Assembly: GCF_050920415.1 (NCBI RefSeq)
Contig: NZ_CP169309.1
Source of the DNA: Escherichia coli
Lineage (GTDB): Bacteria > Pseudomonadota > Gammaproteobacteria > Enterobacterales > Enterobacteriaceae
Length of the DNA: 64,000 nucleotides
Strand: one strand, 5' to 3'
Positions within the stretch are counted from its first letter, which is position 1, and the number at the start of each line of letters is the position of its first letter. The notes under the pieces are model-generated. The model saw nothing but the letters and a program-made list of their open reading frames with translations, searched no databases and was not told where the DNA came from. Position numbers and translations under genes: made by a program. Below are positions 44,395 through 47,799 of this stretch, piece by piece.

Positions 44395-44500
44395 CCGCGC
44401 ACGCCAGCCGGATGCGGCGTGAACGCCTTATCCGGCCTACATTTCGCCCATGAGCCGTAGGCATGATAAGACGCGCAAAGCATCGCATCAGGCATCTGTG
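44395..44500. repeat. REP/BIME elements between frmB and yaiL
   Basis: GCCGGATGCGGCGTGAACGCCTTATCCGGCCTAC and GTAGGCATGATAAGACGCGCAAAGCATCGCATCAGGC motifs. Confidence 0.65.
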
Positions 44501-45158: not shown

Positions 45159-46370
45159 TCAGGCATCAGCGCACGGCTGCATTCGTGATTTTCGACTCAT
45201 CAAAATAAACACCGCTAATCCAGCAACAAGAATACCCGGCGCAGATGCGGCCATTACGCCAACCGTGCCAGTGCCTAATGCCAGCATTTTCCCTGCCAGC
45301 AACGGGCCGCTCATGGCACCCAGACGCCCAATCGCCACGGCGGTTCCCACGCCGGTTGCGCGGATCTGCGAACTGTAAAACAACGGAGCCAATGCATACA
45401 AAACGCTTTGCCCACCTGTTGCAAACAACCCTGCGACGAATCCCGCCAGCAACATACCGTTAAATGATGACACCGTTCCCAGCGCTAACAGCGAAGCTAA
45501 CATACCGCTATAAATCAGTAGCGACATGGTCATTGGACGCAGTTTATCCATCAGTGCGCCCAATATTAACGTCCCGCTTGCCGCCCCCATTTGTAGTGCA
45601 AACATCACCCCTGCCGCCTGCGATGGCTGGAATCCTTGTTCCACTAAAAGCAGCGGTAGCCAGTTGATCAACATGTAGACCACCAGCAAAGTGAAGAAAT
45701 AACACAACCACAGCAGCAGCGTTGCGGTTGCCGTGTCGGGCGCAAATAACGCACGCAGCGGCGGCGCGGCCTGTTTTTCGCCAGCGAACACCGCCGACTC
45801 CGGCAGCCAGCGCATTAACAGTGGCACCAGAATCAACGGCACCACACCACCTACCCAAAACACCGTTTGCCAGGCTAAGTTTGCCCCGGCAAAACCCAGT
45901 GTCGCCGCCAGCGCCGCGCCAATGGGAACCCCGCAATACATCAGGCTCACCGCCGTTCCACGAAAACGTGGCCCCGCCGCTTCAGACGTCAGGGCGATAA
46001 GATTCGGCAACGCCGCCCCCAGCCCGACACCGGTCATTAGCCGCGCAAAGACCAGTGAGGGGAAATCCCAGGCAATAGCCGTTGCCAGCGAGAACAAACC
46101 AAACAGCGCAACTGAACCAATCAAAATGCGTTTACGACCATAACGGTCCGCCAGCATTCCGCCAACCAGCGCGCCGGGTAGCAAACCGAGTATTCCGGCA
46201 CTGAATATCCAGCCCATTTGCATTTTATCGAGTGCAAAAGCCTGGGCGATGCCACCCGCCGCAATGCCAGCCGCCTGAAGATCCAGTCCTTCCATCAGAG
46301 CGACTAAAAAACAAAGCCCGATGGTCAGCATCAGGCGGGATGAAGATGATGAAGGGGTACGAGTCGACAT
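45159..46370 (-). CDS. mhpT: 3-(3-hydroxyphenyl)propionate MFS transporter MhpT (403 aa)
   Basis: Translation MSTRTPSSSSSRLMLTIGLCFLVALMEGLD... MFS. Confidence 0.9.
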   Translation of the reverse strand: MSTRTPSSSSSRLMLTIGLCFLVALMEGLDLQAAGIAAGGIAQAFALDKMQMGWIFSAGILGLLPGALVGGMLADRYGRKRILIGSVALFGLFSLATAIAWDFPSLVFARLMTGVGLGAALPNLIALTSEAAGPRFRGTAVSLMYCGVPIGAALAATLGFAGANLAWQTVFWVGGVVPLILVPLLMRWLPESAVFAGEKQAAPPLRALFAPDTATATLLLWLCYFFTLLVVYMLINWLPLLLVEQGFQPSQAAGVMFALQMGAASGTLILGALMDKLRPMTMSLLIYSGMLASLLALGTVSSFNGMLLAGFVAGLFATGGQSVLYALAPLFYSSQIRATGVGTAVAIGRLGAMSGPLLAGKMLALGTGTVGVMAASAPGILVAGLAVFILMSRKSRMQPCADA

Positions 46371-46444
46371 AAGATGAACCTCGTTGCGAATGCAGGTGAA
46401 TCGCGGCTGATACATTGCCAGCCGCGTAATCAAAACCATTTAAT

Positions 46445-46755
46445 GACTGCCTACGGACGAAAGTAGGCCGGATAAGGCGTTTATGCCGCATCCGGCTGTC
46501 GTGCGCCATTGCCTGATTCGACGCTGACGCGTCTTATCATGCCTACAAATTCCCGCGCCATCCGTAGGCCGGATAAGACGTTTACGCCGCATCCGGCAGT
46601 CGTGCACAGATGCCTGATGCGACGCTGACGCGTCTTATCATGCCTACAAATTCCCGCGCCATCCGTAGGCCGGATAAGGCGTTTATGCCGCATCCGGCAG
46701 TCGTGCGCCATTGCCTGATGCGACGCTGACGCGTCTTATCAGGCCTGGGATGGGT
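46445..46755. repeat. BIME array: about three tandem units of paired REP palindromes between mhpT and mhpE
   Basis: Repeated units of ...GTAGGCCGGATAAGGCGTTTATGCCGCATCCGGC...GCCTGATGCGACGCTGACGCGTCTTATCATGCCTAC... roughly 100 bp apart. Confidence 0.8.
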
Positions 46756-46779
46756 ATACAAAATGCACGTTGCCAGCAG

Positions 46780-47795
46780 TCAACATGATTTGTTGTTGCA
46801 CAGATCCAGCGCCACGTCGACGATCATATCCTCCTGGCCGCCGACCATCCGGCGTTTACCCAGCTCAACGAGAATATCCACCGCGCTTAAACCATAACGC
46901 GCCGCCGCCGTTTCACAGTGACGCAAAAAGCTTGAGTAAACACCAGCGTATCCCAGCGCCAGCGTTTCGCGGTCGACACGTACCGGACGATCCTGCAACG
47001 GACGCACCAGGTCGTCAGCGGCATCCATTAACGCATAGAGATCGGTCCCATGCTGCCAGCCCAGTTTATCCGCGGCGGCAATAAACACTTCCAGCGGTGC
47101 GTTACCTGCACCCGCGCCCATCCCCGCGAGGCTGGCGTCAATGCGGTCACAGCCCTCTTCCACCGCCGCGATAGAGTTCGCCACGCCAAGACTCAAGTTA
47201 TGGTGAGCATGCATGCCGGTTTGCGTTTCCGGTTTGAGCACCGCTTTCAGGGCGCGGAAACGGTCACGGATATCGCTCATGTTCATCGCACCGCCAGAAT
47301 CCACCACATAAATACAGGTCGCACCGTAGCCTTCCATCAGCTTTGCCTGTTTTGCGAGATTCTCTGGCGTGGTCATGTGGCTCATCATCAGAAAGCCAAC
47401 GGTATCCATTCCGAGTTCGCGGGCATACTGAATATGCTGAGCGGAAACATCAGCTTCGGTGCAGTGCGTAGCCACACGAACCACCCGCGCGCCAGCCTGC
47501 CAGGCATTTTTCAGATCGTGAATAGTGCCAATTCCTGGCAGCAACAATGTCGCGATTTTGGCGTGCTTCACCACATCCGCCGCAGCTTCAATCCATTCAA
47601 GGTCGCTATGCGCACCGAAACCATAGTTAAAGCTGGAACCCTGCAAACCATCCCCATGGGCCACTTCAATCGAATCCACGCGGGCATCATCCAGTGCTTT
47701 GGCAATCTGGCGGACATTTTCAAGTGAATACTGATGACGAATGGCGTGCATACCGTCACGCAACGTGACGTCTGAAATATAAAGTTTTTTACCGT

Positions 47796-47799
<4 letters not shown>
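46780..47799 (-). CDS. mhpE: 4-hydroxy-2-oxovalerate aldolase MhpE (339 aa)
   Basis: DmpG-family aldolase; start overlaps the mhpF stop. Confidence 0.93.

Follow-up and report, generated by a model that had tools for sequence, protein, structure and literature searches.

The gap between the genes mhpE and mhpT of Escherichia coli raises the question of which kind of repetitive element fills it, how its length compares with that of the same gap in other strains, and what consequences it may have for the genes on either side. It was analysed here within a window of 64,000 nucleotides, i.e. the whole stretch of DNA under study, to which the annotation of the complete genome MFDS1022581 was transferred (99.9-100% match). 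The resulting gene order is hemB-tauDCBA ... frmR-frmA-fghA, yaiL, mhpT, mhpEFDCBA, mhpR ... lacIZYA-cynX, with mhp transcription running from right to left in the window. The mhpE-mhpT spacer amounts to 409 bp, and the array lies wholly inside it, in an extragenic position. As judged from sequence identity, the E. coli lineage of the window is a rare one: an identity of at least 99% to it in frmA, mhpA or the flanks of the array is reached by only 4-18 of 5,426 complete genomes, the others standing at about 95-99%.

A view on the anatomy of the region shows a regular tandem structure. Tandem Repeats Finder, applied to the whole window, reports an array at 46463-46746 with a period of 101, 2.8 copies, 91% matches, 0 indels and a score of 505, against 51 for the runner-up, in agreement with the designation of this array as the largest repeat cluster of the window in a first-pass annotation of the same DNA. 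A repeat search places the in-register 101-nt copies at 46463, 46564 and 46665, with identities of 100, 92 and 80%. The self-comparison recommended in that annotation was run at all offsets and returned the tandem periodicity, with 92% identity at an offset of 101, 96% at 202 and no more than 45% elsewhere. The array is composed of six REPs (three Y and three Z2) in alternating orientations, each unit running from a Y REP of 34 nt over a 14-nt linker to an inverted Z2 REP of 36 nt and a 17-nt linker, AAATTCCCGCGCCATCC; read with GTAG first, the Y REPs lie on the plus strand and the Z2 REPs on the minus strand (Table 1). The earlier description of a tandem BIME between the minus-strand genes mhpT and mhpE, made up of about three copies of a unit of about 100 bp with two inverted REPs each, is thus borne out by the gene positions, the period and the parse into REPs, and the two palindromes quoted there are exactly the Y and Z2 units. 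Its estimate of about 310 bp of repetitive sequence came close to the measured length: the repeat spans 286 bp (46463-46748), and 300 bp when the 6-nt stub GCCTAC at the left end (46449-46454) is counted in. Compared with locus-adapted patterns, the Y REPs carry 2 mismatches each and the Z2 REPs 1-2, and both units also match the published REP consensus. The foot tetranucleotide GTAG/CTAC is kept in five of the six REPs, the terminal Z2 reading CCAG/CTGG instead.

Table 1. Positions of the mhpE-mhpT array, its parts and neighbouring genes, and of other REP sites in the window.
Feature	Positions	Strand	Remarks
Other REP site: Y+Z2 pair	6640-6729		
Other REP site: Z1+Y pair	20331-20418		25-nt linker, without IHF consensus
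mhpT (3-hydroxyphenylpropionate transporter)	45159..46370	-	Downstream gene; start codon 92 nt after last REP
mhpT-leader hairpin	46402..46426	-	Perfect 8-bp stem, 9-nt loop, CGCGGCUG...CAGCCGCG; non-repeat
Left boundary	46449..46462		Stub GCCTAC, then 8-nt linker GGACGAAA; in every allele examined
Y REP no. 1	46463..46496	+	GTAG foot; 2 mismatches to Y consensus; RNA hairpin -19.5 kcal/mol
Short linker, unit 1	46497..46510		14 nt, variant TGTCGTGCGCCATT
Z2 REP no. 1	46511..46546	-	CATGCC replaces CAGGCC; hairpin -13.9 kcal/mol
17-nt linker AAATTCCCGCGCCATCC, unit 1	46547..46563		C-rich on plus strand, G-rich in mhp mRNA
Y REP no. 2	46564..46597	+	Hairpin -18.6 kcal/mol
Short linker, unit 2	46598..46611		14 nt, K-12-like variant AGTCGTGCACAGAT
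Z2 REP no. 2	46612..46647	-	CATGCC variant; hairpin -13.9 kcal/mol
17-nt linker AAATTCCCGCGCCATCC, unit 2	46648..46664		
Y REP no. 3	46665..46698	+	Hairpin -19.5 kcal/mol
Short linker, unit 3	46699..46712		14 nt, variant AGTCGTGCGCCATT
Z2 REP no. 3	46713..46748	-	GGCCTGG replaces GGCCTAC, foot lost; hairpin -20.5 kcal/mol
mhpE (4-hydroxy-2-oxovalerate aldolase)	46780..47799	-	Upstream of array by transcription; stop codon 31 nt before array
Other REP site: degenerate Y	61574-61608		
Other REP site: lone Z1	62255-62283		

The units are similar without being identical. Their pairwise identities range from 89 to 94%, with units 1 and 3 being the closest pair (94%) and unit 2 showing 89-92% to either of them, because the 14-nt linker occurs in two variants that alternate along the array (GCGCCATT, GCACAGAT, GCGCCATT). 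Such an order is not explained by the plain duplication of a neighbouring unit. The stems of two of the three Z2 REPs are weaker than that of the third owing to the CATGCC substitution, which introduces an A.C mismatch, and the foot-less third Z2 forms a lineage-specific right junction of the array, AGGCC/TGGGATGGG.

The classification of these elements into BIME-2 and BIME-1 is reportedly due to Gilson, Bachellier and Hofnung. BIME-2 are defined as consisting of z2 and y REPs with a short linker S, arranged in tandem copies of strain-variable number, and BIME-1 as consisting of z1 and y REPs in single copy with a long L linker that often contains an IHF site (PMC3333891). The mhpE-mhpT repeat is an ordinary, textbook BIME-2. 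It is built from Y and Z2, no Z1 REP being found in the array by REP pattern matching, it follows the order Y(+) Z2(-) three times with linkers of either 14 or 17 nt throughout, its tandem copies are well conserved and extragenic, and alleles with 1, 2, 3, 4, 5, 6, 7 and 9 REPs occur at the locus. It therefore shares with the class the alternating Y and Z2 REPs, the short linker, the tandem amplification, the extragenic site and the copy-number polymorphism, and there is no essential difference between the two. With BIME-1 or RIP elements it has the Y REP and the inverted REP pair in common, whereas the Z1 REP, the single copy and the long L linker with an IHF site are found in BIME-1 only. 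Among the class roles named in the first-pass annotation, those of gyrase target, mRNA stabiliser and partial terminator are indeed documented for the class, but IHF binding is a feature of BIME-1. To see in the array a BIME-1 (RIP/RIB) element that binds IHF, one may draw on the fact that some BIMEs in general do bind IHF (PMC3333891). The sequence refutes this view, which retains hardly any probability: the array contains neither a Z1 REP nor a long L linker, and the spacer (46371-46779) has 0 matches to the IHF consensus WATCAANNNNTTR, as against seven elsewhere in the window.

The length of the array was put in context by searching 5,426 complete E. coli genomes with two joined 350-bp flanks and taking the distance between the flanks as the insert, the allele frequencies being derived from an evenly spaced sample of 58 of the approximately 4,830 full matches. 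Inserts of 44-54 bp with one REP were found in 32 of these 58 genomes, those of 143 bp with three REPs in 6, of 183 bp with four in 1, of 244-246 bp with five in 6, of 345 bp with seven in 2, and of 446 bp with nine in 11, so that the single-REP allele makes up 55% and the K-12-like allele 19% of the sample. The insert lengths seen (44, 80, 143, 183, 244-246, 284, 345 and 446 bp) step by 101 bp within either of two series, which are distinguished by the sequences of 14 alleles as a common series of the form Y(Z2-Y)n, ending in GTCGTGC/TGGGATGGG, and the series of the window haplotype, (Y-Z2)n, ending in AGGCC/TGGGATGGG. About 500 complete genomes lack the flanks altogether, which is consistent with the report that most strains of phylogroup B2 lack the mhp cluster (PMC11728103). 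The (Y-Z2)n series includes a 2-REP allele, found in a group that shares 98.4% identity with the window in the flanks, and among the nine genomes closest to the window, two have four REPs and seven have six. The window thus carries the longest allele of its rare haplotype, one that is mid-range for the locus. The comparison of copy numbers across strains that had been suggested earlier consequently confirmed variation, from 1 to 9 REPs, but not an exceptional length, and the qualification of the array as "unusually long" finds no support: K-12 has 9 REPs, about one fifth of the sampled genomes share this longer allele, and REP325 contains 12 REPs.

Some of the alleles give hints on how the array changes. 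The 4-REP allele of strain 2013C-4282 is the window allele with one unit fewer, the crossover lying inside Y. It was considered whether simple unequal crossing-over had turned the 4-REP into the 6-REP allele, and this was rejected, since the linker order GCCATT, ACAGAT, GCCATT does not fit such an event; the opposite course, in which the 6-REP allele lost one unit through a crossover within Y, does fit. That single-REP alleles would be static through loss of the GTAG needed by TnpA(REP) did not hold in general either, since GTAG is intact in the single-REP alleles of O157:H7, ST131, D3 and JNE151685, and ATAG replaces it only in 20Ec-P-124 and SMS-3-5 among the single-REP alleles compared. The allele of JNE151685 carries a 10-bp tandem duplication at the REP foot of its left junction (GCGAAATGTA twice), through which its insert measures 54 bp rather than 44 bp.

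A BIME at the mhpE-mhpT site of K-12 was reportedly first described by Ferrandez et al. in 1997 (J Bacteriol 179:2573). A later report states that mhpT is "flanked by two BIME", referring to the 1997 description of the mhp cluster (PMC11728103), and the annotation of NC_000913.3 as used here holds no REP features. At this site, K-12 carries 4.4 copies with 9 REPs (5 Y and 4 Z2) in 446 bp. By sequence comparison, the arrays of K-12 and of the window are homologous, having in common the flanking genes, the orientation, the Y and Z2 REPs, the 17-nt linker, the left REP stub and the period of 101 bp. They differ in that the K-12 array ends on a Y REP and that of the window on the foot-less Z2, and in that the latter contains the two alternating short-linker variants, GCGCCATT and GCACAGAT, and CATGCC in two of its Z2 feet.

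In E. coli GZ04-0086, a K-12-like mhpE-mhpT array contains a copy of IS621, a member of the IS110 family with a bridge-RNA recombinase (L013, 4530-5811). The element interrupts the second Z2 REP precisely at ATCAGGCCT^AC, a type of site known as the natural target of IS621 (PMC11208160), and the adjacent mhpT and mhpE genes are still annotated as complete CDSs. The K-12 array offers three exact targets with the allele ATCAGGCCTAC. None of the three Z2 REPs of the window contains the exact 11-nt target (46536-46546, 46637-46647 and 46738-46748), two of them reading ATCATGCCTAC and one ATCAGGCCTGG at the respective positions.

Regarding its possible effects on expression, the array was assessed for RNA structure and transcription signals. 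The spacer is predicted to fold in mhp-sense RNA with -191 kcal/mol (z = -6.5 against shuffled sequences), and the individual REPs form six stable hairpins of -13.9 to -20.5 kcal/mol. A scan of 46200-46950 found no U-tract after any REP hairpin, so none of these represents an intrinsic terminator; the same scan yielded no terminator-like sites inside the array and two weak ones outside of it, a number at the level of shuffled sequence. No sigma-70-like promoter was recognized on either strand of 46200-46950 by a pattern scan that could miss an mhpT promoter of weak consensus, and no second MhpR operator was found upstream of mhpT in a search of the whole window allowing up to 3 mismatches, the sole operator-like site being that of the mhpA promoter (53198-53214). 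Since neither a promoter nor an MhpR operator is apparent upstream of mhpT, this gene may be induced by read-through across the array.

The nearest analogue among the arrays studied is REP325, a BIME-2 array of 12 REPs between yjdM and yjdN and the one such array for which attenuation was demonstrated by experiment; it stabilises the upstream yjdM message and lowers the downstream yjdN about 10-fold, partly via Rho; the Rho dependence requires the full array of 12 hairpins and is not seen with 2-4 hairpins (bioRxiv 10.64898/2026.03.23.713779). Both arrays are BIME-2 located between two co-oriented genes (on the minus strand in the case of mhp), their Y and Z2 units are alike, their periods are about 100 bp, and their 17-nt linkers are nearly identical (AAATTCCCGCACCCTCC in REP325, AAATTCCCGCGCCATCC in mhp). 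They differ in the short linker, which is 14 nt of the type AGTCGTGCGCAGAT in mhp and 13 nt in REP325 (AACGGTGCCGACT), in the length, the mhp array having half as many REPs, and in the orientation to transcription, which is opposite. The 17-nt linker in sense RNA consequently contains two C and eight G in mhp as against nine C and one G in REP325, and the excess of C over G per 78 nt ranges from -10 to +3 in the mhp array and from +1 to +11 in the REP325 repeats. The C-rich linker that REP325 carries in its mRNA, presumably the basis of its partial Rho dependence, is thus missing in mhp mRNA, which owing to the inverted orientation contains G-rich linkers unfavourable for Rho loading. On base composition, the sense strand of mhp appears a less likely place for Rho-dependent termination, which would, if anything, be more likely on antisense RNA.

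The functional roles of the mhp array we infer from the properties of its class. It is likely that the BIME-2 in the transcribed mhpE-mhpT gap acts as a recombining array that protects mRNA by its hairpins, allows partial read-through and provides gyrase sites. In this scheme, the array would lengthen or shorten by recombination or slippage between units, possibly assisted by TnpA(REP). In transcripts from the mhpA promoter, the REP hairpins would halt 3'-to-5' exonucleases and thereby protect the mhpABCDFE message, and would pass only part of the transcription on to mhpT, so setting the ratio of enzymes to transporter. On the DNA level, the three Y REPs, situated downstream of an inducible operon, would be sites preferred by gyrase. 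REP hairpins are known to guard 3' ends against PNPase and RNase II and to define stable 3' ends (PMC6061677), tandem gene pairs separated by REPs show a bias to the upstream gene, and sites of gyrase cleavage are enriched in BIME-2, above all in their Y REPs, regardless of transcription (PMC6379681). The accessible part of the supplements to this gyrase map makes no mention of mhpT or mhpE (PMC6379681). Any influence that the length of the array has is probably slight and dispensable, since most E. coli have one REP at this site, and their share in the sample argues against a strongly selected role for the length of the array.

It is conceivable, if somewhat improbable, that the array is a neutral, selfish or hitch-hiking repeat whose length drifts and which does not meaningfully affect mhp expression or topology. 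The span from 1 to 9 REPs with a single one being commonest, the occurrence of both 4-REP and 6-REP alleles within the lineage of the window, the weakening substitutions in REP stems and the annotation of mhpT and mhpE as complete CDSs next to the IS621 of GZ04-0086 would all fit this view, as would the reported lack of a uniform effect of REPs on mRNA half-lives. However, exonucleases and RNA polymerase are unlikely to be unaffected by six hairpins of -14 to -20 kcal/mol in a transcribed spacer, deletion of REP325 altered the neighbouring genes 3- to 10-fold (bioRxiv 10.64898/2026.03.23.713779), and the enrichment of gyrase cleavage in BIME-2 is independent of transcription (PMC6379681). We are doubtful about the version put forward in the first-pass annotation, according to which the array would separate mhpT expression from mhpABCDFE, here taken as an insulator in the form of a strong, REP325-type and partly Rho-dependent partial terminator that uncouples mhpT and leaves it to a promoter of its own. 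The array does share the repeat family and the tandem-gene context of REP325, which limits yjdN transcription, and a link between REPs and Rho-dependent 3' ends has been described (bioRxiv 10.64898/2026.03.23.713779; PMC6061677), but its orientation and its G-rich mRNA linkers are the opposite of what REP325 presents, it has only six hairpins, fragments of REP325 with 2-4 hairpins having shown no Rho dependence, and it comes without a hairpin followed by a U-tract, without a sigma-70-like promoter in the array or between array and mhpT, and without an MhpR operator upstream of mhpT. Rather unlikely, too, is a more far-reaching reading, by which the number of REP pairs would be a heritable rheostat of the transporter-to-enzyme ratio and the array would mainly block antisense transcription into mhpE in a Rho-dependent manner. 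The inversion relative to REP325 means that the C-rich face is presented to antisense transcripts, and as no promoter or operator of mhpT was found, the 3HPP-induced transporter would in this case depend on read-through; the balance between transporter and catabolic enzymes would then be set anew, lineage by lineage, with each 101-bp unit gained or lost.

Two further readings would turn the array into a gene. All three units score above the gathering threshold (59.5 bits) of the Rfam family RF02564 (naRNA4) on the plus strand, with 70.9, 74.4 and 84.1 bits, and one unit does so on the minus strand (60.0 bits), which might suggest genes for a nucleoid-associated small RNA acting with HU in chromosome compaction, as originally proposed for naRNA4 (PMC4550694). 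Yet RF02564 is in effect one Y-Z2 unit of REP325 and models the BIME-2 repeat unit, so the match shows homology of repeats, not a gene; moreover, the strand with the best match runs antisense to mhp and shows no promoter-like site, and REP325/naRNA4 is without measurable nucleoid compaction according to a 2026 preprint (bioRxiv 10.64898/2026.03.23.713779), all of which leaves this reading very unlikely. Open reading frames of 76 codons (46481-46711) and 94 codons (46225-46509) run through the REPs on the minus strand, and the array might be taken to code for a small protein; the frame of 76 aa is initiated by ATG, and a "hypothetical protein" is annotated under the array in a few genomes. This has practically no probability, as the product is an Arg-rich translation of palindromes without a Pfam match and the frame is impossible in the single-REP majority of genomes; the annotations in question are probably mis-calls derived from the repeat.

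The type of the element, its presence at the locus and its copy-number polymorphism are already known; what is added here are the spectrum of alleles, the second type of junction in a rare lineage, the inversion relative to REP325, and the fact that IS621 has targeted the array in one strain. The element is real but ordinary, and its importance beyond annotation is small. For annotation purposes, the array should be described as gyrase-associated rather than of the IHF type and as unexceptional in length, an Rfam naRNA4 match should be taken as "BIME-2 unit" and not as a gene, and the array should be regarded as a documented landing site of IS621 in at least one strain. The natural allelic series, with 1 to 9 REPs and two junctions, offers a test bed for relating copy number and orientation of REPs to read-through and mRNA stability.

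Some minor features were observed in the surroundings of the array. The mhpE gene comprises 339 codons here versus 337 in K-12, because the K-12 stop codon TAA reads TCA and the frame continues to a TGA two codons on (46780-46788); this stop is overlapped by a weak terminator-like hairpin (46766-46787), which is not conserved in K-12. In the mhpT leader, the inverted repeat CGCGGCTG/CAGCCGCG lies 32-56 nt upstream of the start codon; its hairpin lacks a U-tract and is retained in K-12 with one G-C pair changed to G-U. A second BIME, consisting of one Y and one Z2, is located between fghA/frmB and yaiL (44407-44493) and is polymorphic as well, since K-12 has four REPs there; the CATGCC variant of the first two Z2 REPs of the main array recurs in its Z2. 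Genes for an MBL-fold metallo-hydrolase and a GlxA-family regulator lie in this lineage between mhpR and lacI (54195-55944), which are neighbours in K-12.
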